From Chloroflexota bacterium (GTDB lineage: Bacteria; Chloroflexota; Chloroflexia; QHBQ01), in contig JAYUUN010000036.1 of NCBI GenBank assembly GCA_043754535.1, forward strand, positions 1 to 49,487: DNA of 49,487 bases, written 5' to 3'. Under the pieces are notes generated by a model. It was not told where the DNA came from and did no database searches. It saw only the letters and a program-made list of their open reading frames with translations. The position numbers were made by a program, and so were the translations under genes. Below are positions 12,936-46,122 of this stretch, piece by piece. The number at the start of each line of letters is the position of its first letter. The first letter of the stretch is position 1.

Positions 12936-13224
12936 TCTTTTACTTACGTACTGTTGTTACTTTGGGTTTTTGGCATGGGTGCCTACAAGTTAGCCTTAGA
13001 GTAGTTGTTGCCAATTCTGTTTGGAGAAATCGTCGCAAATGATCTGGGTAGCCGCTGTCCGTATGAGCGCAGGAGCGCACACAGGCTGTGTGTGTGCTGC
13101 TTCTGCCGATTAGCCCAGTGGGGTGGCCCGTAAGTAGCCCTCTCTAGCCTTAACAGAATAGGTATTGCTCGCCCGCGAAAGCGACTGCTTGTTGTGCGCC
13201 TTAGCCGTTGAAAGGTCAACCGCT

Positions 13225-16200
13225 ATGGCTGAAGTGAGGAACCTGGTGCGCGAGATCGTGCGCCGTGACCTAATCCAGTGTCCAATCGAAGTTGCTTATA
13301 CTGATTACCACGACCTACTTTACTACACTCAGCAGATATGGAACCGCATCTTCAATTCGGTGGGGCGCGAGAAGACTCGCCTCAACCTCGTCTATGCCCG
13401 CCATCTGTTGGAACTGCTCGAACGCTTCCCTGATGAGTCGACCAATGATATTGAGGTCAAGTGCCTGACTGCGCTGGGCAACTTCTGCACCAGCATGGCC
13501 GAAGCTCCCTCCGAGATCACCTCGTTGGAACGGATCGACTATGCCCTATCTGCCCTCTCTTGCTTCCGTTCGCGCAACGCCCTGATGCCGCTTAATGCTA
13601 CAAGCCTGACCCTGGTACGCGTGGCCTTGCAAGTCTACCTCAGTGCGCTGGTCGATCTGCGCGCCCCCCAAGCCGAGTACGACTTCAGTGAAGTGGCCCA
13701 CGAAATGGACGAAGCTCTAGACCCATACCAGACGCTGATCCTGCAAACCGCCAGCAACCGCAATGCGATCCGCAACAACCTGCTGTTCGACTTCTTCCGC
13801 GCTCGTGTGCGTCCCCTCGTCAACCAGGGCAAGCGGGTGGAGTTTGAGAAAGCCTTTACTGCCGCTCGCGCCTACATTGATCCCACCCTCCTTAGCCCCG
13901 AACGACGAGCCGCCTGGCAGAACTTCAAGGTGGAGTCGGAGGCAGGCCAGAGTCGTGAGCAACTGGCCGAGGCCCGCGAAGTCGAGTTGCGCGCCAACCC
14001 CCTTGCTGTGGAGTCGGATGCTGCGCCAACCACTGCCAGTGCAGCAGCCAGCCCAACCACCGCCGCCACCGAGCCAGAGTTGGTGCCAGACGGTGACGAA
14101 GAATTGACCAACTCGTTTGAGGAGGAGTTGGCAACCCACCTCGGCCCGATCCGCAGCCCCCGCATCTGGCTTGAGCAGAAGATGACCCCCAACGACCCCC
14201 AGCGTGGCACCAGTATGCCCCAGGTACTCTTTCAGCTTGTGCAGGGTGGCATTGATGCTTATAAGATGGGTGACTATGAGGCGGCCCTACGCCAGTTCAA
14301 CCAGGCCGACTTGCAGAACCCCAGTGCCACCTTCCGCCACGTCCTCTTTTACAACCGCGCCGCAACCCTGCTGGCGATGAACGAGGCGGGCAAGAGCCAA
14401 CAGGCCGAGCAACTGCTGGAGCAGGCGACCAGCCTGGGCAGTCGCCTGCCTGGTCTGCGCTGGAATCTGGCGGTTGCCTATTGGCGCAATCATGGTGTAG
14501 ACAAGCGGCTGATCGACACCCTCAACGAGGTGGTAGATGCTGGGCGCAAAGCTCCACTCTGCTCTGCCGCCGCCTGCTACCTGCTTGGCAACGCACTGGG
14601 GTCGATGGAGGCACTCTTGCGGGCGAAGGCACTACCCGGTTCTGTCCCCGATCTAGACGAGGAGTTGCAGAAGTTGGCCGCCGACTACCCCAACCTCGCA
14701 CCGCAACTGAGCGCAGAGCTAGCTCGCCTGCGTGCCAACTACCCCCCCCAGCCCGCCCGCCCCGCCGAGCAGCCCTATCAGCCAGAGCAACCCTACCAGC
14801 GTACGCCCTACGGCCAGCCGCCCTACACCTTCCCCAACCAGACCCAGCAGCCCTACGGTCAGCCGCCACAGCCGCAGCAACCTGCTTACGGCCAACCACA
14901 ACCGTCACAGCCCCCCTACGGTCAGCCGCAGCCGACCCAGCCAACTTACGGCCAACCACAATCGCCGCAACCGCCTTACGCTCAGCCGCAGCCAACCCAG
15001 CCGCCCTACGGTCAAGCGCAGCAGCCGTACCAGCAACCCTACCCTCGTCCCTACAATGCCCAGGCTGGCTACAGCAGCAACCCCAATCAACCATACCCCC
15101 GCCCCTACAATGCCCAGGCTGGCTACAGCAGCAACCCCAACCAGCAACCCTACCCCCGTCCCTACAATGCTCAGGCTGGCTACAGCAGCAACCCCAACCA
15201 GCAACCCTACCCCCGTCCCTACAATGCCCCGGCTGGCTACCATCCGCCGCGTCCGCAGGGTGAATACCAGCAGCCCCCAGCAGCAAATGGGGAGCAGCGG
15301 GCCAGCTTCGCTCCCCCCAGCCGCCTTGGTGGGATCGTGGAGCAGTATGGCAAGCTGCTCGATCTGCTCGTCCCCTTTGCCGACGGCACCAGTGAGGAGG
15401 AGGAGTTGCAGCGTAGCCAGCTTGAGTTCTCCCTGGGCCTGGCTCGGTTGGAGCAGCAGACTGCTGCCCTTGAGGGAGCTACCCAGCAAGCTGTTGCCCC
15501 CTTGTTCGACAAGTGGCGGCGGCTGGGCGAGGTGCTGGCTGGACGGGTGCAGAGCGGCCTCAGCCAGAGCCTGATCCTGGTCAAGGCCGTGCAGCGGCAG
15601 ATCAGCGACGCTGCCAAACCGAGCGGGTTGGTGATCGCCCTCACCAACCAGGATGTGGTAGCCAGCGTCAGCAATATTGAACTACGCCTACCTCCCCGCC
15701 CTGACACCTACACCCTGGCGAGTGAGGTGGGCGCAGATGGTGAGGGGGCCATCCTGCGCGTTCCTATGCTGGGGCCGGGTGCCACCCGCTACCTCAAGTT
15801 CAATCTAGCCCCGCTGCGCCCTGGCCCACTAGACCTGGTGTTCGAACTAGCCTACCAGGTTAGCGGCGGTGACGACCAGCAGCCCAGCCACCACCGCAGC
15901 CACGTACTGCTGCAACCAGCATTGCAGGCTGCCCGTATTGACCCAGTATCCAGCTTCTACCTAGCGGGCGAGTCGATACCCGAAGACCGCGACGACATCT
16001 TCAAGGGGCGCGGTGAGGAGATTGCCCGTGTCAAGGCCAGCCTGGGCCTCGGCACTGGCGGTTCGCGCCACCAGAGCATGATCCCCTACCTGACTGGCAT
16101 CAGCAAGGTGGGCAAGTCCAGCCTGCTCAACAACCTGACCAACCCCCGCTTGCACCCCGACCTACACCAGAGCTTCCTGCCCGTGCGTATCAGCATGGAC

Positions 16201-17589
16201 GAGTACCAGGGCGACGAGTACAAGCTACCCTTCTTCCTCAAGGCACTGGCGGCCCGCATCGGTAAGGCGATGACCGCAGCGGGCTACAGCGCGCCCGCTA
16301 TTGAACCTTTGTGGCCGATGTTGCGCGAGGCTCCACTGATCACCTTCTTTGACGACTACCTGGGGGCAGTCAGCGACACCCTGCGCCCACGTCGCCTGCT
16401 GCTGATGTTCGATGAGTTCCGCTACCTGGCCGACAAGATACGGATGGGCGATTGGGACAGCGGCTTCCTCAGCAAGCTCCGCACCCTCTACCAGAACGGC
16501 CTGGTTGGGCTGATCTTTGCTGGGCGCGGCAACTTCAGCGAGGTTACACGCGGCCTCAACGAGCCGAGTCTGTTGGACTCGGTGCGCGACCAGCCGCTTA
16601 GCTTCCTCAACCCTGGCGCGGTGCGCGAACTGATCGAGCAGCCTAGTGGAGCGAGGGGCATCACCTTCGTGCCAGAGGCGGGCGGGCTGATCAGCCAGTT
16701 GACTGGCGGCCACCCCTTCTTCGTTCAGTCGCTTTGCCACGACGTGATCAGCGAGGTGCTGAACCGCGAGCGGCGCAAGGTGGTGATTCCAGAGGATGTC
16801 AAGCAGATCAACAAGCTCTATCTGCAATCCGACAACCTCTTTTCGCATATCTGGAACGGCGAGATGCGCGAGGTTCATCAGGAGGTGATCTTTACCCTCT
16901 TGCAGTTGCAGGAGGGCAGCAACAACTTTGTGGATCGTGGGGCGTTGGTCGCGGGCATCAGCCACTACCCACCCCGCGATGTGGCGACGGCAGTCGAGTT
17001 CCTACGCCAGCGCGAGGTGCTGGAGGAGTCTTCTAGCAGCGAACATTTCGTCCGTATCCGCATCCCTTTGCTCTATGGCTGGTTCCAGAACAAGCACACT
17101 CGTGGTCTGAGCCTGGCCCCTTCGCGAGTGGAACGCTTGCAGGACGTGCAGACGCTCACCGAGCAGGTGATCCGCCTGCGGCGCAAGTGTAACCAGTGGC
17201 GCGCTAACGTCTTCAAGGAAGATGCTTCGGATAGCAGCGTAGCCGAGGAGATGATGCATCTGGCGGCGGAGAGTTGGGCCGACTTCGAGCGGCTGGTGCA
17301 GTTGATCTACAAGTACATCGGCAACGAGGCGATCATCAACCGCGACTACCTGCGCGAGGTGCCACGCTTCGGCGAACTGGTGCGCGACTTGCAGGCAATC
17401 CGCAACGGCGTAGCCCATCGTCTGGACAATGACCGCTACCCGGACAGTGCCGACGCGGCTTACAAGGCGATAGACAAGTACCTCGGCCACCAGCCGGTAG
17501 CCGCCAGCGACTTCCTGGAGTTGCAGGAACTGGTGCTGCGCTCGGCGATCAGTGGCCTCAACGAGTTGCGCGAGGCGGTTGAACGCTAG
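13225..17589 (+). CDS. Large multidomain STAND-like ATPase: helical/TPR, P/Q/Y/N low-complexity repeats, Ig-like, AAA+ NTPase, wHTH, HEPN-like C-terminus (~1454 aa)
   Basis: FKGRGEEI, Walker A GISKVGKS (16096-16119), Walker B LLLMFDEF, TGGHPFFVQ, C-terminal RNGVAH (17401-17418); TPR-like helices around 14220-14600. Confidence 0.8.
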   Translation: MAEVRNLVREIVRRDLIQCPIEVAYTDYHDLLYYTQQIWNRIFNSVGREKTRLNLVYARHLLELLERFPDESTNDIEVKCLTALGNFCTSMAEAPSEITSLERIDYALSALSCFRSRNALMPLNATSLTLVRVALQVYLSALVDLRAPQAEYDFSEVAHEMDEALDPYQTLILQTASNRNAIRNNLLFDFFRARVRPLVNQGKRVEFEKAFTAARAYIDPTLLSPERRAAWQNFKVESEAGQSREQLAEAREVELRANPLAVESDAAPTTASAAASPTTAATEPELVPDGDEELTNSFEEELATHLGPIRSPRIWLEQKMTPNDPQRGTSMPQVLFQLVQGGIDAYKMGDYEAALRQFNQADLQNPSATFRHVLFYNRAATLLAMNEAGKSQQAEQLLEQATSLGSRLPGLRWNLAVAYWRNHGVDKRLIDTLNEVVDAGRKAPLCSAAACYLLGNALGSMEALLRAKALPGSVPDLDEELQKLAADYPNLAPQLSAELARLRANYPPQPARPAEQPYQPEQPYQRTPYGQPPYTFPNQTQQPYGQPPQPQQPAYGQPQPSQPPYGQPQPTQPTYGQPQSPQPPYAQPQPTQPPYGQAQQPYQQPYPRPYNAQAGYSSNPNQPYPRPYNAQAGYSSNPNQQPYPRPYNAQAGYSSNPNQQPYPRPYNAPAGYHPPRPQGEYQQPPAANGEQRASFAPPSRLGGIVEQYGKLLDLLVPFADGTSEEEELQRSQLEFSLGLARLEQQTAALEGATQQAVAPLFDKWRRLGEVLAGRVQSGLSQSLILVKAVQRQISDAAKPSGLVIALTNQDVVASVSNIELRLPPRPDTYTLASEVGADGEGAILRVPMLGPGATRYLKFNLAPLRPGPLDLVFELAYQVSGGDDQQPSHHRSHVLLQPALQAARIDPVSSFYLAGESIPEDRDDIFKGRGEEIARVKASLGLGTGGSRHQSMIPYLTGISKVGKSSLLNNLTNPRLHPDLHQSFLPVRISMDEYQGDEYKLPFFLKALAARIGKAMTAAGYSAPAIEPLWPMLREAPLITFFDDYLGAVSDTLRPRRLLLMFDEFRYLADKIRMGDWDSGFLSKLRTLYQNGLVGLIFAGRGNFSEVTRGLNEPSLLDSVRDQPLSFLNPGAVRELIEQPSGARGITFVPEAGGLISQLTGGHPFFVQSLCHDVISEVLNRERRKVVIPEDVKQINKLYLQSDNLFSHIWNGEMREVHQEVIFTLLQLQEGSNNFVDRGALVAGISHYPPRDVATAVEFLRQREVLEESSSSEHFVRIRIPLLYGWFQNKHTRGLSLAPSRVERLQDVQTLTEQVIRLRRKCNQWRANVFKEDASDSSVAEEMMHLAAESWADFERLVQLIYKYIGNEAIINRDYLREVPRFGELVRDLQAIRNGVAHRLDNDRYPDSADAAYKAIDKYLGHQPVAASDFLELQELVLRSAISGLNELREAVER
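14878..15021 (+). repeat. 30-bp (10-aa) coding tandem repeat, consensus QPxYGQPQPx, ~5 copies
   Basis: Units start at 14878, 14908, 14938, 14968 and 14998. Confidence 0.85.
15037..15240 (+). repeat. 54-57-bp coding tandem repeat PYPRPYNAQAGYSSNPNQ(Q), ~3.6 copies
   Basis: Near-identical units start at 15037, 15091, 15148 and 15205. Confidence 0.92.
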
Positions 17590-33857: not shown

Positions 33858-34583
33858 TTGCCCTACATCATCGAAGCGATGGATTTCGACGACATTCCGG
33901 CAGTTGTCGCCATCGAACGGCAGTGTTTCCCACTGCCCTGGCCGGTCAGTGCCTACCGCCGCGAGCTACGCACCCCCAACACCAACCGCTACGTCGTCGC
34001 CCGCTGGGTGGCGGAGAGCAGGATGGGGGGAAAGGCTGCCGAGCAGCAGGCCAACCGCCAGCGGCTCAACCCTGTGCCAGAGCGCAACCTGCTAACCCGC
34101 ATCTTCCCTTTCCTGGCAAAGGAGAGCGACGGCCTGCGCCCAGCCAGCCCCTACCCCATCGTCGGCTACGCTGGCTTGTGGCTAATGGTGGACGAGGCGC
34201 ACGTGACGACGATTGCGGCGGCCCCAGCCCACCAGGGGCGTGGGGTGGGCGAACTGCTCTTTCAGGCGATGATCGAGCAGGCGTTGGAGATGAACGCCAC
34301 CTGGCTGACGCTTGAGGTAAGGGTCAGCAACGTGACCGCCCAGAACCTCTACCGCAAGTACGGGCTGAAGGAGGCGGGCCGCCGCCGCCGCTACTACACC
34401 GACAACGGCGAGGATGCCTACATCATGTGGTCGGAGCCGCTGCGGAGTAAGGAGTTCCAGGATCGCTATCTGCAACTGAAGGCCGAGCTGCGTGACCGGG
34501 TGGCGAACAAGAGCCGCGAGAAGGGTACGCCCTCAGTAATGCCCCAGCCAGCCCCGCTGACCGAGGCGGAGATGGCGGAGTAA
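33858..34583 (+). CDS. rimI: Ribosomal protein N-acetyltransferase RimI
   Basis: DEAHVTTIA, QGRGVG, LEVRVSN, RRRYYTDNGEDAYIM; TGTTATAAT at 33809-33817. Confidence 0.9.
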   Translation: MPYIIEAMDFDDIPAVVAIERQCFPLPWPVSAYRRELRTPNTNRYVVARWVAESRMGGKAAEQQANRQRLNPVPERNLLTRIFPFLAKESDGLRPASPYPIVGYAGLWLMVDEAHVTTIAAAPAHQGRGVGELLFQAMIEQALEMNATWLTLEVRVSNVTAQNLYRKYGLKEAGRRRRYYTDNGEDAYIMWSEPLRSKEFQDRYLQLKAELRDRVANKSREKGTPSVMPQPAPLTEAEMAE

Positions 34584-34594
34584 GGAGAGTAGCA

Positions 34595-34926
34595 ATGCTG
34601 ACGCGCATCGAGATAGATGGCTTCAAGAGCTTCCAGGACTTCAGCATGGACTTCGGCTCGTTTACAGTCATCCTGGGCCAAAACGCTTCCGGCAAATCGA
34701 ATCTGTTTGACGCAATCAGACTGCTCTCTCGCTTGGCTGCTGAGAACTCGGTTGCCGCTGCCTTTAGCGGTGTACGTGGATCTATCGGGAAGGTGCCACC
34801 GCTGCTAGCTTTCTAGCCGAGCTAGGCCGTGAGGTGCCAATCAAGAAGTTGCGCCAAGTACCATCGTTCCAACGCTTTGAAGCTGATTTGCGAAAAGCCC
34901 TGGTTGCAATGGGCATTCTGGAATAA
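34595..34926 (+). pseudogene. Remnant of an ABC/AAA_21-type ATPase (N-terminus) joined to the C-terminus of a DUF4276-like partner gene
   Basis: MLTRIEIDGFKSF...GQNASGKSN stops after 73 aa; another frame reads [41 protein letters not shown] ending at 34926. Confidence 0.7.
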
Positions 34927-34930
34927 AAAC

Positions 34931-37618
34931 ATGAACATCCTTGCTTTCGAGACATCCTGCGACGAAACTTCTGCGGCGATCATCCGCGACGGGCGGCGCA
35001 TCCTCAGCAATGTAGTCGCTTCGCAGATCGACCTACACACCCTCTGGGGTGGGGTGGTGCCAGAACTTGCCAGCCGCCAGCACATCCTCTACGTGATACC
35101 CACCCTGGAGGAGACTCTGCGCCAGGCAGGGCTAACCTGGGCCGAGGTTGACGCTATCGCTGTCACCAACGGGCCGGGGCTGGCGGGCGCGCTGCTAGTT
35201 GGGGTGAACGTGGCTAAGGGGCTGGCCTTCGCCCTCGGCAAGCCGCTGCTGCCTGTTAACCATCTGGCGGGTCACATCTATGCCAACTGGCTGATCCCCA
35301 CCGCCAACGCTGCCCCCCAGCCGCTCGTCGTTGCTGCGCCAGAGCCGCAACCTGCTCCCGCCCCAACCGCCAGCCTGCTGGATACTGGCAGCCGCCGTCG
35401 CGTCCTTGGTGCCACTGAACTGCCCCCCTTCGAGCGGCAGGGTACACCGATTGCCGTGCCTGAACTGCGGGTGCAGCCGCCAATTGTTGAGGCAAAGAAG
35501 GAGAAGGAAACAAAGGAGCCTGGGGAGCCAAAGTTCCCCCTCGTCTGCCTGGTCGTCTCTGGCGGGCATACCGAGTTGGTGCTGATGCGCGGGCATGGCC
35601 GCTACGAACTACTCGGCAAGACGATTGACGATGCAGCGGGCGAAGCCTTCGACAAGGTAGCGCGCCTCCTGGGTCTTGGCTATCCTGGCGGCCCTGCGAT
35701 CCAGCAGTTGGTAGAGGAGACCCACGCCGACCCACGCGCCATTGATCTCCCACGGGCCTGGTTGCGTGGCAGCTTCGACTTCAGCTTCAGCGGCCTCAAG
35801 ACTGCTGTGCTACGCAAGGTCGAGGAGTATGGCGGCCTGCCTATCCGTCCTAAGATTCGCCCCTTCGCCGAGGTAGAGGCCGAGCAGCAGCAGCGTGACC
35901 GCCTGGCTCGTGAAGCCGAGGCTGCCCGCCCGCCGATCATCGTCGCGGGCAAGGCGAAGGAAGTACAAGCTGACTCGACCGCCGCCCCAACCAACCCGCC
36001 AGCCACGCTCCAGGCCGCAGTACCAGCGCAAGAAGACAGCAGTACACAAGAGCCTACACCCGCTGCGCCCGATCAGACAGCCATGCGGCCAGCGGAGCAG
36101 TTGCGCCCAGCCGCTCTGCGTCCACTGCGCACCGCCAATGCGGGCAGCAGCGTGCGCCCGCGTCGCCCCGACATCGCGGCTGGCCTGCGCGCCCAACTGC
36201 TGGGTGATGAAGCCCCCGTACGGGCAGCCCGCCCTGCTGGTTCTGTACCAGACGAAGATGAGGATGATGGAGAGGAGCAGCCGACTACGCCACGAAGCAA
36301 GCGGATAGCCGCCAGTGGCCCCGCTCTCTTGCGACCACGCCTGCCACTGGTGCAGCAGTCTGGCGATGAGGACGATGAGGACGATGAGGATGAGGACGAT
36401 GAGCAAGGGCAGCAGCTAACCCGACCCGCCAGCCCACAACCGTTGAGCGGTGCCGCGGGGCTACAACGCCGCCCCCTACCCTTGCGCCCCCTCGCACCGA
36501 CTGACGACGAGGACGACGGCGATGAAGATGAAGATGAGGACGGCCTCCCGCCCTTCACCAATCCTGCCCGTTCCACAGTCCCCGCTGGCCCCGGCCTGCA
36601 ACGCCGCCCCTTGCCAGGAATGCAGAGCAGCCAACCAACTACACCTGCCAACCCATCTGCGCCCCTACCAGGCGACAGCAGCGCGCAGCGCAACAGCAGC
36701 CAACCAGTCAGCCCCCAGAGAAGTGGGGCTGAGGAGCAGTCCGCTGGATTGATCCGACGCAGTAGCACCAGTGGCACGGGCAACAACCCGACCACTAGCC
36801 GCCCACCCCAACACAGCGGCATGAGCGAACCACCACAGCCCAGCCGTCCGCAACAGCAGCCACCAGCCCAGCCCACACGTGGCAATCAGCCACCCACTGC
36901 TGGCAACCGCCCAAATACCCCCTCGCAGCCACAACGTCCCGCTAGCGGCAGCCAGCCACCCCAGCGTTCGACCAGCAGCAGCAACCAGCCTGTGCGGCCC
37001 AGCAACCAACCCGTGCGCCCTGCCCCCCCCCCACCGAAGCCGCTGGCCGACCGCCCAATCTCGGCGGTGCCGAAAGGCAACCGCGCCGCCGATGTGCAAG
37101 ATGAGGACGCGGAGTTGGAGGAGCCAACCCGCCACGCCCTCGGCTCGGCTGCCGACGACGAGCCAGAGGATGACAACCGCCCCCGCCCGCACCGCAGCCT
37201 CGGCGCAGAGGAGAACGCAGGCCGCCCGCTGGTCAGCAGCAGGCTGGCTAAGGACAAGCCGCCGCTTGACCCAGAGGACTTTCCGCTGGCGGAGATCGCC
37301 GCTGCCTTCCAGTTGGCAGTGATCGAGGTGCTGGTCGAGAAGACTGCCGCCGCTGCCGAACAATATGGTGCAAAGTGCGTGATCCTTGGTGGCGGCGTGG
37401 CAGCCAGCAAGCTGCTGCGTACCATGCTGGCCGACCGCCTCAGCAGCCCATTGCTCTATCCGCCCCCAGCTCTCTGCACCGACAATGCAGCGATGATCGG
37501 TGCAGCGGCCTTCTACCGCTACTATCATCCGCAGGCTCCCGACCGCGACAAGGCCGACTCCTCCGACTGGGCGATGGACATTGAGCCGAACGCCCACTAT
37601 CTGGGCAACGAAGAATGA
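34931..37618 (+). CDS. tsaD: tRNA N6-threonylcarbamoyltransferase TsaD with two large low-complexity insertions (~895 aa)
   Basis: [68 protein letters not shown]. Confidence 0.92.
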
Positions 37619-39348
37619 GAACCCTGAGCAAACAATGGGCTGTGCATCAGCCGCTCCCTGCTGACGTGCGCGACGCACTGGCTTTGGCTGCCCGCGAGTG
37701 TGACCTGCCGCTCAACGACCTCTCCCTCCAACTGCTCTACAATCGCGGGGTGAGTGGCACCGCCGACGCTATTGCCTTCCTCAAGGCAGGCAACGCCAGC
37801 CTCAATGACCCCTACCGCTTTGAGCAAATGGATGTGGCCGTTGACCGCATCACCGTTGCGCTCGGTGCGGACGAGAAGATCGCCATCTACGGCGACTATG
37901 ACGCGGACGGCGTGACTGCCACCGCCCTGCTGGTCAAAGCCTTGCGCGGCATGGGGGCCGACGTGATCCCCTACATCCCTCATCGCACCAGCGAGGGCTA
38001 TGGCATGAACCTGGGCGCGCTAGCGAAGTTGCAGGAAGAAGGCGTGCGGCTGGTGATCACTGTAGACTGCGGCATCAGCAATATAGATGAGGTGGCAGCA
38101 GCGATCCGTGACCATCAGATGGATGTAATCGTCACCGACCATCACCGCGCCCCCCGCAACCTGCCGCAGGCCAACGCCCTCATCTCTGCCCGCCGCCCCG
38201 ACAACCAGTACCCCTACAAGGAACTGACTGGTGTGGGCGTGGCCTACCAGCTTGTGCGCGCCCTGATCCAGCGTGGTGTAACGCTGCACGAGAGTGTCAA
38301 GCCCCGCGACCTGCTCGAACTGGTCGCCATCGGCACGGTAGCCGACGTAGCCCCGTTGGATGGGGACAATCGCATCCTGGTCAGCAACGGGCTGCGGGCA
38401 ATGCGTGGCACCCGCAGCGAGGGGCTACGGGCGATCTATGCAGCGGCCCGGCTCAAGACAGAGAGCCTCACCACCGAGAGCATCGGCTTCGCCATTGCCC
38501 CACGCATCAACGCCGCCGGTCGGCTCGACTCGGCCTGGGATGCTTACAACCTGTTGATGAGCGAGGATGCGATCCAGGCGGGGATGCTTGCCAGCCAGCT
38601 TGAGGCGAAGAACCAGGCACGCCAAGCACTAACCAGCGAGATCGTAGAGCAGGCCACCGCCAGCGCACTCGTTCTCGACGACGACGCGCCGATCATCGTC
38701 GTGCATGGTGTGGGCTGGAACGCTGGGATCGTGGGGCTGGCCGCCGGTCGCCTGAAGGAGATGTTCAACCGCCCGGTGATCGTGATCGAAGAAGGCGAGG
38801 GGATGAGCAAGGGCAGCGCGCGAAGCATCAAGGGCTTCAATGTCACCGACGCGCTAACCGCAGTGAGTGACCTACTCTCTCGCTATGGCGGCCATAGCAT
38901 GGCGGCAGGGTTCAGCGTGCCGACCGCCAACCTGCCAGAGTTTAAGCGGCGGCTGCACGAACACGCCGCCAGCCTGCTAACCGCCGCCGACCTGCTACCC
39001 CGCCTGGAGGTTGATGCCGAGTTGACGATCAACAAGCTGCATCTCGGCCTCTGCGAACAGCTTGAGCTACTCGCCCCTTGGGGTACCGGCAACCCTGCCC
39101 CAATCTTCGTCAGTCGCAGCCTACGGGTGAAGGAGGTTTGGCCGGTCGGCAACGGCAAGCACCTCAAGCTCAACCTCTATGACCGCGAACGGCACCAGAG
39201 CATTCGGGCGATCTACTGGCGGTCAGGCGACCTCCTGGCTCAGATGCGCCAGCAGCCGATGGTAGATGTAGTTTACGCCGTTCACCTCAACGAGTGGAAC
39301 GGCAGCCGCAATGTGGAGCTTGACATCAAGGACTTGCATATAGTCTAA
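37615..39348 (+). CDS. recJ: Single-stranded DNA exonuclease RecJ
   Basis: [44 protein letters not shown] overlap with tsaD. Confidence 0.95.
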
Positions 39349-43173: not shown

Positions 43174-46122
43174 CTACTGCTGTCGAACCCGCGGCGGCGC
43201 AAAGTCTGCGCTACCCTCCTCGTCATCCTCGTCAGGTGCTTCCTCGGCCTGTCGGTTCACTTCGGCTTTGCTGGCGACCACAGGCGGGACGATCTCGGCT
43301 ACGCTGCCGTCATCCTCGGTTAGCAGCACAGAGCGCGGGCGGCCACCCTCAGAGGGGCCGACGATACCACGCTGCTCCAATAGGTCAATCAGCTTACTGG
43401 CCTGGTTGAAGCCGACCCGCAGCTTGCGTTGCAGCAGCGAGGTGGAGACGAAGTTGTGCTTGCGGGCAAGCTGGATCGCCTGCTTCAGCATCGCCTCATC
43501 GGTCTGCGCCTCATCCATCGCGTTCGGGTTCGCCCCACTCTCGATCTCGCGCATCCACTTCGGCACCTCAACCGCCGTTGGGTTGACCCCAGTCTCCTCC
43601 TCAATCTGGCCTGCCATCTGCCGCCAGTAGATCACGATCTCGTCCACCTCCTTGTCGGAGACGTAGGTACCCTGAATCCGCAGCATCTTGCTATCGTCCG
43701 ACGCGCTGTAGAGCATATCACCGCGCCCCAACAGCTTCTCAGCACCAGGGGTGTCCAGGATTACCCGACTGTCTACCATCGAAGTGACAGCGAAGGCAAT
43801 CCGAGCCGGGAAGTTGGCCTTGATCAGGCCGGTGACCACATCCACACGGGGCGACTGGGTGGCTATGATCAGGTGCAATCCGGTAGCGCGGGCTAGCTGG
43901 GCGAGGCGGCAAAGGCTGGTCTCTACCTCCTCTGGGGCAGTGAGCATCAGGTCGGCTAGTTCATCAATGATGATCACAATATAGGGCAGGCTCTCAAGGC
44001 CCGCACTCTCTTTCGCCTCGTTGTGGTACTGCTCTATGTTGCGAAAGCTAACCACCTGGCTGCCATCCGCCCGCTTGTAGCCCTTTGCAAACAGCTTGTA
44101 GCGGCGTTCCATCTCCCACAAGGCCCACTTCAGCACCTCAACCGCCGTCAACTGGCGGTTCAGTGGCCCCTCCTCATCCTTGTCGCGCTTCAGTTCGGTG
44201 ACCACGGGGCGTAGCAGGTGGGGGATACCGTTGAAGTTGGTCAACTCCACCCGCTTGGGGTCGATCATCAACATCCGTAGCGTCTCCGGGGTGTGCTGAA
44301 AGATGAAGCTGGCGATGATCGAGTTGAGGCAGACCGACTTACCAGAGCCGGTGCTGCCGCCCACCAGCAAGTGGGGCATCTTGGTGAGGTCGGCAACCAC
44401 GGAGCGGCCCTGGGTGTCTTTGCCGAGCGGGATCAGCAGCTTGCCCTTGACGGCGGCCCGTTGGAAGGCTTCGCTCTCCAATGTCTCGCGCAGACCGACC
44501 ACTGAGCTACTGGGATTCGGCACCTCCACTCCTACATAGGGCAGGTTCGGCACAGGGGCTTCGATCCGCACGCTGGGCGCAGCCAGGGCAAGCGCGAGGT
44601 CGTTGGCGAGGCCGACGATCTTGGCGACCCGCACCCGCTCCAGCCGAGGGTCGCGTGCGCCGCCCACATTGCGGTCACCTGGGGCAATCAAGAACTGGGT
44701 GACGGCAGGGCCGGTGTTATAGCCAGTGCGGTCGTCTGGGGCGGTGACTGGCACGCCAAAGCTGGCAAGGGTGTCAATGATCGTCTGCAAGCGGCGTTGG
44801 TTGGTCACGTTGTCCACCAGCCCACCACTAGTGCGTTCGAGCATATCGGTGCTGGGCCTGAGCCAGAGGTTGTGGCTTTTACTGGCCGGGATGTTGAGCG
44901 GCAGTTGCGCTCCCGACTGCCCGTCGGATGGAGCGGGCTGGCTGGCAAGCAGGCGGATCGCTGGCTTTGCAGTGGCAAGCGGGTTGCTGGCCGCAAGCTC
45001 TGTGCTACTAGCGAGGTTGATGCTTGGCCTGCGGAGGGGAGTGGGTGGCTCTGGCACGTGATCGATGCGCTCGGTGGGGGCGAGGGCGCGGCTGCGGCTA
45101 GCGGGAGCGGGCGAACCAGGTAGGTCGCTGGTATTCAGGTCGCGCTCAAAGTCGCTGGCACTAACCCGTCCACCGGCACTGCGGCTGCCGCGCTTGGGTG
45201 CAGCGAGGGTTATGTCGGTGGTGGGGTTCGCCAGCAAGCGGCGGCGCAGCGAGTCTTCGCGCTCCTTACTCTTACTGTCCTGCAAAGGTGGCTCGGTGCT
45301 AGCAGCTGGCGGTTGCGTCGGCGACGGCCTGATAGCTGCCTTGCTGACCCGACCGAGGCTCCGCACCATGTCGCCGAGCGACACCTGGAAGGTGAGGATC
45401 ACCCCGATCAGCACGATAGCCAGTAGCAGGAAGAAAGCACCCGCTGCGCTAAACCACTCCTTGAAGTGGCCGCCGATGAACGCGCCGACGGCACCGCCAC
45501 CCTCTGTGCTAAAGGCGACATTAAGCAGCCCCTCAGCAGCGAGGACGAGTAGCAACAGGCCCGCCCAAGTTTCGCTACCTAGCCGCCGCTTGAGGCCACC
45601 TTGCACGACCATCGCCACCGCCAACGCACCGATCACCAACGGCAGCAGCCACGCGCCAGTGCCGAATGCTGCCTGCAACGACTGACCTACGCCACCTATC
45701 ACCGCACCATCCTTCGCCTGCAGGGCTACGCCGATTAGCACAGCGATCACGACTAGCACAATTGCGGCGATCTCAAGCTGCTGCTTCTGGTCAACCTGCA
45801 TCCCACCGCTGGCGGGCTTGCGGCGGCTGACTGCTGGGCTACGGCTGCCGCTATTGCGGGTGGGCGTGCTGGTAGTGCGCGGCGGTGGGCTGGGGCGTGG
45901 CGCGGGAGGCGGGTGGCTAGCATTGCCGCTCCCCTTGCTACCCTGCGTGCTGGCTGTTACCCGACGAGCGGCAGCGGCAGTGCTGACCGGGCGGTTGGGT
46001 GGTGCGGCGGGCGGGGCCGGGTGGCGGCTAACGGCTGGCGGCGTGGCTGGCACGGCGCGACTGCTGGCCCGCTGAGGGCTACTTACCTCTTTGTTCTGCT
46101 CGTTCTTGCTAGCCACCGGCAC
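43174..46122 (-). CDS. ftsK: FtsK/SpoIIIE DNA translocase
   Basis: 4-TM N-terminal domain, PHLLVGGSTGSGKS, IDPKRVEL, IIDELADLM, GAEKLLGRGDML, gamma domain STSLLQRKLRVGFN. Confidence 0.95.
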   Translation of the reverse strand: MPVASKNEQNKEVSSPQRASSRAVPATPPAVSRHPAPPAAPPNRPVSTAAAARRVTASTQGSKGSGNASHPPPAPRPSPPPRTTSTPTRNSGSRSPAVSRRKPASGGMQVDQKQQLEIAAIVLVVIAVLIGVALQAKDGAVIGGVGQSLQAAFGTGAWLLPLVIGALAVAMVVQGGLKRRLGSETWAGLLLLVLAAEGLLNVAFSTEGGGAVGAFIGGHFKEWFSAAGAFFLLLAIVLIGVILTFQVSLGDMVRSLGRVSKAAIRPSPTQPPAASTEPPLQDSKSKEREDSLRRRLLANPTTDITLAAPKRGSRSAGGRVSASDFERDLNTSDLPGSPAPASRSRALAPTERIDHVPEPPTPLRRPSINLASSTELAASNPLATAKPAIRLLASQPAPSDGQSGAQLPLNIPASKSHNLWLRPSTDMLERTSGGLVDNVTNQRRLQTIIDTLASFGVPVTAPDDRTGYNTGPAVTQFLIAPGDRNVGGARDPRLERVRVAKIVGLANDLALALAAPSVRIEAPVPNLPYVGVEVPNPSSSVVGLRETLESEAFQRAAVKGKLLIPLGKDTQGRSVVADLTKMPHLLVGGSTGSGKSVCLNSIIASFIFQHTPETLRMLMIDPKRVELTNFNGIPHLLRPVVTELKRDKDEEGPLNRQLTAVEVLKWALWEMERRYKLFAKGYKRADGSQVVSFRNIEQYHNEAKESAGLESLPYIVIIIDELADLMLTAPEEVETSLCRLAQLARATGLHLIIATQSPRVDVVTGLIKANFPARIAFAVTSMVDSRVILDTPGAEKLLGRGDMLYSASDDSKMLRIQGTYVSDKEVDEIVIYWRQMAGQIEEETGVNPTAVEVPKWMREIESGANPNAMDEAQTDEAMLKQAIQLARKHNFVSTSLLQRKLRVGFNQASKLIDLLEQRGIVGPSEGGRPRSVLLTEDDGSVAEIVPPVVASKAEVNRQAEEAPDEDDEEGSADFAPPRVRQQ

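Follow-up and report, generated by a model that had tools for sequence, protein, structure and literature searches.

A giant TsaD from a Chloroflexota genome: an intact core interrupted by two long inserts predicted to be disordered

TsaD is among the few enzymes present in every cell and has been regarded as compact and constant in size. Here we describe a TsaD of 895 amino acids (aa) encoded in the window, that is, the whole 49,487-nucleotide (nt) stretch of DNA analysed (contig JAYUUN010000036.1, assembly GCA_043754535.1, Chloroflexota bacterium). The genome of the window (G000) belongs to family f1, and f1, f2, and f3 denote families of one order of the Chloroflexia. It is fairly probable that this gene, the only tsaD found in its genome, encodes an intact core carrying two disordered loop inserts that are kept by selection and probably arose once, the larger of which may act as an arm in the synthesis of N6-threonylcarbamoyladenosine (t6A).

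As far as the accessible part of the report goes, the cryo-electron microscopy (cryo-EM) structure of a TsaB2D-tRNA complex (PMC13276492) identifies helix alpha7 of TsaD (residues 210-223 in Thermotoga maritima, Tm) as the main contact with the tRNA D-stem, its first turn being F207SFSGLK213, while K166 and R169 grip the anticodon-loop phosphates and the alpha1-alpha2 hairpin (aromatic-GGVVPE) along with TsaB's C-terminal helix pins the anticodon loop. In the same part of that report the tRNA lies on a positive surface and fills much of the TsaE site, the acceptor stem and the T arm are both left untouched, and the C-terminal domain rotates by 28 degrees. The roles of the metal ligands are described there and in PMC6009658, and the accessible part of PMC8565320 uses the name "Kae1-specific insert I" for an element of Kae1. 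In another RNA enzyme, the termination factor Rho, a disordered insertion was reported to phase-separate (PMC11347177 and PMC10284900, both available in part).

The gene, its core pieces and its inserts are arranged as follows.

34931..37618, + strand: tsaD coding sequence, 895 codons plus a TGA stop.
34931..35290, + strand: core piece 1, aa 1-120, the N-terminal lobe; it contains E7-T-S-C-D11, W39GGVVPE45 and, as metal ligands, H111 and H115 (nt 35261-35275); defined by E. coli alignment, invariant columns and a predicted local distance difference test score (pLDDT) of ~90.
35291..35515, + strand: insert 1, aa 121-195, 75 aa, P/A-rich, assigned to the inter-lobe linker from the gap against E. 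coli residues 120/122.
35516..35830, + strand: core piece 2, aa 196-300, with S210GGH213, I232DDA235, E238, K242, R245 and F284SFSGLK290 (nt 35780-35800); defined by E. coli alignment and invariant columns.
35789-35830, + strand: predicted D-stem helix alpha7 within core piece 2, aa 287-300 (helix 287-299 in the AlphaFold2 model; role taken from the accessible part of PMC13276492).
35831..37273, + strand: insert 2, aa 301-781, 481 aa, a net acidic polyampholyte predicted to be mostly disordered (E. coli alignment, AlphaFold2, charge statistics).
37274..37615, + strand: core piece 3, aa 782-895, with G821GVA and C849-T-D851-N (nt 37475-37486), D851 completing the metal triad; defined by E. coli alignment, invariant columns and pLDDT ~90.

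A single open frame on the forward strand (34829..37618) contains tsaD, which runs for 895 stop-free residues from the ATG at 34931, a start that agrees with the MNIL.. N-terminus of homologues. The product matches the Pfam family TsaD (PF00814) in three stretches (E 5.2e-87, 292.3 bits vs a cut-off of 24.8, profile positions 2-263) and aligns as three collinear pieces with E. coli TsaD (4ydu_A, E 2.8e-74), namely residues 1-120 with E. coli 1-120, 196-300 with 122-225 and 782-890 with 228-339. The two inserts make up 556 of the 895 residues (62%) and bring the protein to 2.6 times the usual length; within insert 2 the reading frame of the gene (frame 0) holds no stops, the other two forward frames 6 and 25. 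The original prediction, made from the letters of the window, had described a TsaD with all motifs in order and in frame, split by inserts at about 35294-35530 and about 35831-37280, and both the collinear matches and the boundaries found here agree with it; the strings that it quoted (an Arg/Pro block occurring twice, an acidic tract and then a P/Q/S/N tract) are all present in the translation.

The AlphaFold2 model of the core has a pLDDT of ~90 and was matched by Foldseek to 4YDU, 4WQ5, and 6Z81 with probability 1.00 and a root-mean-square deviation of 1.9-2.1 A over 300 columns; the predicted structure is the bilobal ASKHA fold with the family-specific helical insert that characterizes TsaD/Kae1/Qri7 (COG0533). 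In an alignment of 33 sequences, D11, E12, H111, H115, S210-G-G-H213, D233, D234, E238, K242, and F286-S-G-x-K290 are invariant, and R245 and C849-T-D-N-A-A-M855 nearly so. The metal triad (Tm H109, H113, and D296) is present, with H111 and H115 invariant and D851 near-invariant, as are the tRNA-contact motifs W39GGVVPE45, I232DDA235, K242, R245, and F284SFSGLK290, which are conserved. Judged by its sequence, the TsaD core is intact and its catalytic and tRNA-contact residues are conserved.

Low-complexity, GC-rich sequence such as that of the inserts is prone to assembly error, and long antisense open frames overlap the insert, features that might be expected of an artefact or of a selfish element (misassembly, an intein, an intron or inserted mobile DNA). 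The available sequence collections speak otherwise. The protein falls in a 99%-identical cluster of 895-aa sequences with 11 members, and the whole or part of the stretch was detected in 12 sequencing runs, none of those listed being an RNA run, which carries no information on expression. Four runs of one study were set aside as a possible source; six runs from six other studies, labeled glacier, freshwater or "metagenome," hold 77-92% of the sampled words of the stretch, and contigs from four of these six were aligned to the tsaD stretch. A contig from run X6 (18,228 nt) covers 34900-37650 with 6 differing letters and a single 9-nt gap, one from run X5 (5,600 nt) covers 34931-37650, gapless and likewise with 6 differing letters, and runs X8 and X10 tile the gene piecewise, one bin being uncovered in X10. 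Since the X5 and X6 contigs, which come from two other, independent studies, span both inserts, these are not the product of misassembly, an outcome that the original prediction had allowed for. The only length variants across samples are of -9 and -3 nt, at 36364 and 36380, both in-frame and in GAT/GAG arrays. Insert-less alleles were considered and rejected: the X5 and X6 joints that skip 1664-1811 nt have shorter sides of 25-29 letters, are of a kind that often stems from other organisms, and would also delete core motifs (FSFSGLK, GGVA), ending at the conserved CTDN codons.

With respect to mobile elements, a Pfam scan of each insert alone returned no family at E <= 1, and in particular no Hint, intein or LAGLIDADG domain, while the scan of the whole protein at E <= 0.01 returned TsaD only, plus a sub-threshold HypF_C_2. 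Insert 2 starts with GGLPIRP and ends with ..DPEDF, followed by PLAEIA, and insert 1 starts with LIPTAN and ends with ..KETK, followed by EPGEPKF, so that neither has the Cys/Ser and His-Asn boundaries of an intein, in agreement with what had been remarked at the outset. Taken together with an architecture common to relatives in two families, with in-frame indels and with a ratio of nonsynonymous to synonymous substitution rates (dN/dS, omega) below 0.3, these observations leave an artefact or a selfish element barely credible. The capture of a stand-alone gene was likewise rejected, as the comparison of insert 2 with 1.84 billion representatives gave two matches and no donor gene, the matches being P0138 (a cut TsaD of a relative) and P0137. 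The latter is a public protein of 2,338 aa with a weak RING-finger match and ~25 repeats of the type GGKVARRPTGFVRGPIPTDDDDEDEEEE; we read its resemblance to insert 2 (an Arg-Arg-Pro/RRPTGF motif plus an acidic tract) as probable compositional convergence.

As far as can be judged from codon comparisons, both inserts undergo translation and weak purifying selection, their indels being in frame and omega below 0.3. Between G000 and its congener G001, whose tsaD is cut at a contig end so that the comparison is limited to aa 385-895, omega was 0.29 in insert 2 (394 codons) vs 0.018 in the C-terminal core. Between G004 and G002 it was 0.23 in insert 1, 0.19 in insert 2 and 0.02-0.11 in the three core pieces, and all 10 indels were multiples of 3.

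The assembly of G000 (3.87 Mb in 132 contigs) is 88.9% complete, and a search of it for the TsaD family returned the three pieces of this gene, one 250-aa frame of TsaB type and nothing else; the second canonical tsaD for which a check had been proposed was not found in this assembly. The partners of a bacterial TsaBDE-type system are encoded in the same genome and are of ordinary size: tsaE (180 aa) adjoins tsaB (233 aa) on contig C124, with the TsaE match at C124:34571-34954, and a Sua5_yciO_yrdC (Sua5/TsaC) match lies at C120:10611-11153. The giant TsaD would be expected to make t6A as any TsaBDE system does. A replacement of lost TsaE by the acidic insert was ruled out by the presence of TsaE in G000 and in 40 of the 41 genomes of the order-level sample. 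The tsaE open frames measure 168-201 aa in f1, 153-284 aa (mostly <220) in f2 and 239-297 aa in f3, where the greater length may reflect either a genuine N-terminal extension or read-through from upstream.

The incompleteness of the assembly, and the finding that the tsaD of two relatives is split over three frames, could also be read as signs of a decaying or non-functional copy, the working enzyme being encoded elsewhere. This is highly improbable, however, for a gene of 895 codons without stop or frameshift, with omega of 0.018-0.11 in the core and with every catalytic and tRNA-contact residue conserved. Moreover, in the 41 genomes the matches amount to a single tsaD in pieces and a weak match of TsaB type, with the exception of G033 (f2), which has tsaD-like pieces on two contigs; none of the 41 was seen to have a short canonical tsaD alongside a giant one, and of the two frame-broken genes one is an f2 gene of ordinary length, in an assembly of 30 contigs.

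In the AlphaFold2 model 475 of the 895 residues have a pLDDT below 50 (residues 135-191 and nearly all of 346-772), these regions being without predicted secondary structure, and the sole confident helix of insert 2 spans residues 313-331. Charge segregation exceeded that of 1000 shuffled sequences by 10.9 standard deviations in insert 2 and by 13.7 in aa 400-580, with 0 of the 1000 shuffles reaching the observed value, so that the description of the inserts as disordered and charge-blocked holds, the disorder being predicted over both. From its entry, insert 2 comprises a linker and helix, a P/A/T-rich stretch, a charge-block zone, a P/Q/S/N zone and a conserved module.

35867..35923, + strand: confidently predicted short helix, aa 313-331, located at the base of insert 2 (AlphaFold2 block, pLDDT 70-92).
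36128..36670, + strand: charge-block zone, aa 400-580 (z 13.7), where acidic tracts alternate with Arg/Pro/Leu motifs.
36248-36277, 36362-36406 and 36500-36544, + strand: acidic tracts of the charge-block zone.
36458-36478 and 36593-36613, + strand: two copies of the GLQRRPL motif, with 135-nt spacing.
36671..37075, + strand: zone rich in P/Q/S/N, aa 581-715 (P 23%, S 17%, Q 13%).
36979-37020, + strand: tandem 21-nt unit encoding SNQPVRP twice.
37076..37273, + strand: conserved C-terminal module of insert 2, aa 716-781, conserved in f1/f3 and present also in P0138.
37067-37078, 37097-37117, 37154-37171 and 37193-37210, + strand: motifs of the module, namely VPKG (just before it), two acidic tracts and RSLGAE, respectively.

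The module sits 20-60 residues ahead of the re-entry of the chain into the core, and its VPKG, acidic tracts and RSLG are common to f1, f3 and P0138. GAT/GAG triplet arrays encode an acidic tract in the charge-block zone, whereas self-BLAST of insert 2 revealed no off-diagonal repeats at the protein level, short repeats being detected in the DNA alone. A six-frame scan of the genome found GLQRRPL and the VPK..G-acidic pattern confined to tsaD; RSLG[AL][DE] occurs three more times, which is compatible with chance. In the f3 protein P0006 the model replaces the 19-residue helix of f1 with one Glu/Arg/Ala-rich helix of 117 residues (301-417; block pLDDT 81-97 to about residue 370, then 59-75), which is followed by ~380 low-confidence residues. 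The three central acidic tracts of f1 are missing from f3.

Predicted disorder and a biased, patterned composition, both found here, are the features expected of a phase-separating insertion, and the original prediction had proposed a scaffolding or phase-separation domain that would concentrate TsaD with tRNA or partners in condensates, by analogy with Rho of Bacteroides thetaiotaomicron. Besides the charge blockiness, the Arg-rich motifs and the P/Q/S/N tract would suit such a role, and the insertion regions of Rho are similar in make-up (APA, QN, RxR, and a terminal acidic EDDV) in the accessible part of PMC11347177. We nonetheless hold a condensate role to be distinctly unlikely. The long helix of f3 takes the place of the central acid/base blocks, so what is conserved of the insert is not the blocky zone. 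The P/Q/S/N tract is nearly a quarter proline, and high proline is unfavorable for prion-like assembly. The other disordered proteins of translation in this genome (IF2 and S1) have ordinary terminal extensions. Blockiness and disorder as such fit a condensate, a tethered gating or tRNA-capturing arm and a weakly selected loop expansion equally well.

In the order-level sample tsaD was detected in 41 of 41 genomes, and 30 loci were retrieved, 21 with complete open reading frames (ORFs) and 9 contig-cut or broken. The complete TsaD proteins measure 895, 945, and 943 aa in f1 and 901, 747, and 906 aa in f3, as compared with 367-442 aa in the 15 ORFs of f2, all of one genus. Between fixed motif anchors, site 1 spans 91-99 aa in all six f1/f3 proteins and 30 aa in all 15 of f2, and site 2 spans 388-582 aa in f1/f3 as against 79-154 aa in f2, where the loops match those of the giants only at the entry (KP.P[WF]) and the exit (LPVADLAA.FQ) and have neither the acidic tracts nor the VPKG/RSLG module. 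Four unpublished genomes (G007, G012, G015, and G034) contribute to these tallies and to what was measured in f2; none of the conclusions depends on them alone, and the f2 range is also covered by published loci such as L030 and L020. That the inserts might be absent from all relatives, another way in which the prediction could have failed, is contradicted by their occurrence in two families.

In a collection of 5.8 billion proteins most TsaD proteins of 492-1567 aa are RimI-TsaD fusions. Nineteen proteins were retrieved from the best 120 listed of the long TsaD matches of that collection, and insert-type giants among them are P0003 and P0004 (f1-like), P0006, P0008, and P0009 (f3-like) and P0011 (cut), the remainder being fusions, chimeras or proteins with over-called starts. 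Two proteins of other lineages, P0012 and P0097, have site-1 inserts of unrelated sequence, and the f3-like proteins P0008, P0009, and P0129 measure 897-907 aa. One cluster member bears the source name "Chloroflexia bacterium." Three public proteins of 669-672 aa (P0061, P0068, and P0098) appear by their sequences to consist of an N-terminal TsaB-like domain (..GPGSFTG.RIG..), an Ala/Asp-rich linker and then TsaD, and would be TsaB-TsaD fusions rather than cases of inserts.

Across the phylum a tsaD match was obtained in 394 of 401 genomes, and the following results rest on the best 150 listed of these 394. Among the 149 listed other than that of the window, at least 8 frames reach 500 aa or more. 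Giant TsaDs elsewhere in the phylum were rejected for the matches listed: in the 7 retrieved of these 8 the extra length comes from read-through upstream, TsaD proper measuring 331-408 aa and site 2 49-87 aa; the eighth (G065) lies at a contig end and was left out. The 45 genomes of the same class contribute 13 of the matches listed, with frames of 338-444 aa and one more that is contig-cut. The proposed survey of TsaD lengths across Chloroflexota therefore upheld the giant form in two families, and gave ordinary sizes among the matches listed elsewhere. A tree of the trimmed core columns unites f1 with f3 (84/81) and places f2 as their sister (99/99), in keeping with a single origin; the common ancestor of f1 and f3 probably acquired both inserts, once only, after which triplet slippage and local duplication likely drove their growth and turnover.

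Growth of this kind may have been merely tolerated, two permissive loops having gained low-complexity sequence by slippage and duplication under selection only for a soluble, disordered and in-frame product. The triplet arrays and short duplications within the insert fit such an expansion, as do the small in-frame variants between samples at an acidic tract, the twofold spread of site 2 within one f2 genus and its wide range in f1/f3, and the fact that just ~35 of the 481 positions of insert 2 are common to all three f1 proteins and at least 5 of 6 f3 proteins. Inserts of unrelated sequence also occur at site 1 in other lineages (P0012 and P0097, and a 63-aa site 1 in L044 and L046), and no insert segment docks on the core in the model. 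On the other hand, omega of 0.19-0.29 is far below 1, ~390-580 residues are retained in all six complete f1/f3 proteins and in P0008, P0009, and P0129, and this retention spans family-level divergence (42-55% overall identity), with short motifs and acidic tracts conserved near the exit of the insert. When the internal low-hydrophobicity segments of 2,471 crude gene calls are ranked by length (85 of them reach 80 aa or more), that of TsaD comes first by the measure used here, and it alone breaks a single catalytic fold, in contrast to the disorder in 24 other disorder-rich proteins checked, 7 of them without a Pfam match. On balance, a purely tolerated expansion is possible but rather unlikely.

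The reading that we prefer, in which the disordered inserts are kept by selection for a role, takes its lead from their position. F284SFSGLK290 and the model helix 287-299 directly precede insert 2, which would accordingly leave the fold at the C-terminal end of alpha7, beside the surface contested by tRNA and TsaE, while insert 1 would lie in the inter-lobe linker, after the helix that bears H111 and H115. Insert 2 may thus be a tethered, net-acidic polyampholyte arm adjoining the tRNA/TsaE surface. Its conserved acidic module, 20-60 residues from the positive tRNA groove and hence close enough to reach it, could compete with tRNA or TsaE; such competition would gate binding or aid product release, the Arg/Pro motifs farther out could capture tRNA, and the arm would tune binding or turnover with the chemistry unchanged. 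This specific mechanism is put forward tentatively, as one possibility. A broader proposal, that the inserts make a normally unregulated tRNA-modification enzyme self-regulating or self-organizing, either by electrostatic gating or capture of tRNA or by tRNA-dependent clustering, is also a speculative one and, on present evidence, doubtful.

Several observations weigh against the preferred reading as a whole or in part. The AlphaFold2 model shows no insert segment docked on the core, so the gating idea is without structural support, and the position of the inserts was mapped via sequence motifs and predicted helices only. The middle of the insert differs by family, f3 having the 117-residue helix in place of 19 residues and no counterpart of the f1 acidic tracts, which disfavors one precise shared mechanism for that part. 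Most of the insert is poorly conserved and its alignments are uncertain, so that dN and dS are both inflated (dS is 0.86 in insert 2 vs 0.29-0.43 in the core). The grouping of f1 with f3 is only moderately supported. With an assembly short of completeness, a second tsaD on unassembled DNA is conceivable. Finally, in 2 of the 41 genomes, G006 (f3) and G030 (f2), the sole tsaD lies in three separate frames, with two frame changes each (L074, G006:C2:1613900-1617700; L075, G030:C18:380500-382500); both are few-contig assemblies, and the breaks are likely assembly indel errors, with decay as the alternative.

The disorder of other proteins in this genome was surveyed for a lineage habit of disorder-filled enzymes, which was rejected: the others with a Pfam match have terminal extensions (IF2, S1), inter-domain linkers (FtsK, MutS2, PP2C, a kinase) or long helical hairpins (MacA-type adaptors), together with TPR/HEAT proteins. 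The S1 homologue (L052, G000:C15:4797-7514, 906 aa) has a C-terminal tail of ~200 aa rich in S/A/T/D/E, and IF2 (L058, 954 aa) a Gly-rich N-terminal region of 335 aa. In the window, a 1474-aa ORF (13165-17586, + strand), with no Pfam family at E <= 1e-5, has a 202-aa internal segment rich in Pro/Gln (P 27%, Q 20%), and an FtsK/SpoIIIE translocase of 982 aa (43177-46122, - strand) has a low-hydrophobicity N-terminus of 120 aa and a similar internal linker of 153 aa, in the usual location for such a linker. Rho of G000 was found as a 506-aa open frame only.

The genes flanking tsaD are the following.

33858..34583, + strand: GNAT acetyltransferase, rimI-like by position, upstream of tsaD (Pfam Acetyltransf_1, E 3.7e-14).
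37615..39348, + strand: recJ, downstream of tsaD (Pfam DHH, DHHA1, RecJ_OB).

The tsaD stop overlaps the ATG of recJ (ATGA, 37615-37618), which suggests translational coupling of the two genes. In the 350-nt gap between the rimI-like gene and tsaD, a 73-codon ORF (34595-34816, + strand) matches the first ~45 positions of the P-loop ATPase families SMC_N, AAA_15, and AAA_21 (E 2.8e-11 to 1e-8) and apparently represents the N-terminal remnant of an ATPase gene that has been lost.

The interest of this locus lies in that the only tsaD copy found is 62% sequence predicted to be disordered, long kept by selection, and in that insert 2 has its root at the tRNA D-stem helix, structurally defined only in 2026. 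If the arm alters the binding of tRNA or TsaE, these lineages would offer a natural experiment on the tuning of the t6A catalytic cycle, and the giant TsaD would join Rho as the second bacterial example of an RNA enzyme of the core set that has taken up a regulatory disordered insert. Should self-regulation prove true, the inserts would amount to a lineage-specific control layer on t6A synthesis, possibly responsive to ionic strength, pH or cold. To our knowledge, such control is undescribed for any TsaD, Kae1 or Qri7. If the inserts are without a specific role, they would measure the disorder tolerated by an essential fold at its substrate-binding helix. A ready comparison is available between the blocky acid/base arm of f1, the long helix and disorder of f3 and the short loop of f2.

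Public annotation already calls these proteins TsaD. Full-text searches on TsaD/Kae1, Chloroflexi, disorder, phase separation and cryo-EM returned no account of an insert-bearing TsaD, consistent with the initial impression of an architecture not described before, and the main texts of two reviews of t6A diversity, in the parts available and supplements aside, mention only fusions and small loop differences.

Among known systems, canonical TsaD (E. coli YgjD/TsaD, 4YDU and 6Z81; T. maritima TsaB2D2E2, 6N9A, and the complex of PMC13276492) has the same fold and a collinear core, with the metal triad, the nucleotide motifs and the tRNA-contact motifs, the partners TsaB, TsaE, and TsaC and, as in many bacteria, rimI upstream. 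It differs in length (~330-345 aa vs 895 aa in the window), the giant having 75 additional residues in the inter-lobe linker and 481 between alpha7 and the next core helix, and the tsaE-tsaB pair of the window's genome lies on a separate contig from rimI-tsaD. In RimI-TsaD fusions, Kae1-Bud32 and TsaN (TsaD-TsaC-SUA5-TcdA, 8IDE) the TsaD/Kae1 core is likewise extended beyond ~340 aa; these fusions add folded terminal domains, whereas the extra length of the giant TsaD is internal, unfused and without a Pfam family. The closest working analogue, as far as the accessible part of PMC11347177 describes it, is the insertion region of Rho ("Type 2" atypical; B. thetaiotaomicron, Mycobacterium tuberculosis, and Clostridium botulinum). 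Rho differs as an enzyme and in fold, its inserts lie between N-terminal domains while the TsaD insert breaks one ASKHA lobe, and it has experiments on RNA affinity, phase separation and prion-like behavior, whereas the giant TsaD is known from sequence, so that the likeness is one of principle and not of membership. Within that limit, and in the same part of the report, each is a conserved RNA-handling enzyme with a lineage-specific insert of biased composition, modeled as a low-confidence loop and adjoining an RNA-binding element, and the inserts of both combine A/P-rich and Q/N-rich sequence and Arg-rich motifs with an acidic motif at the end where the chain re-enters the fold.

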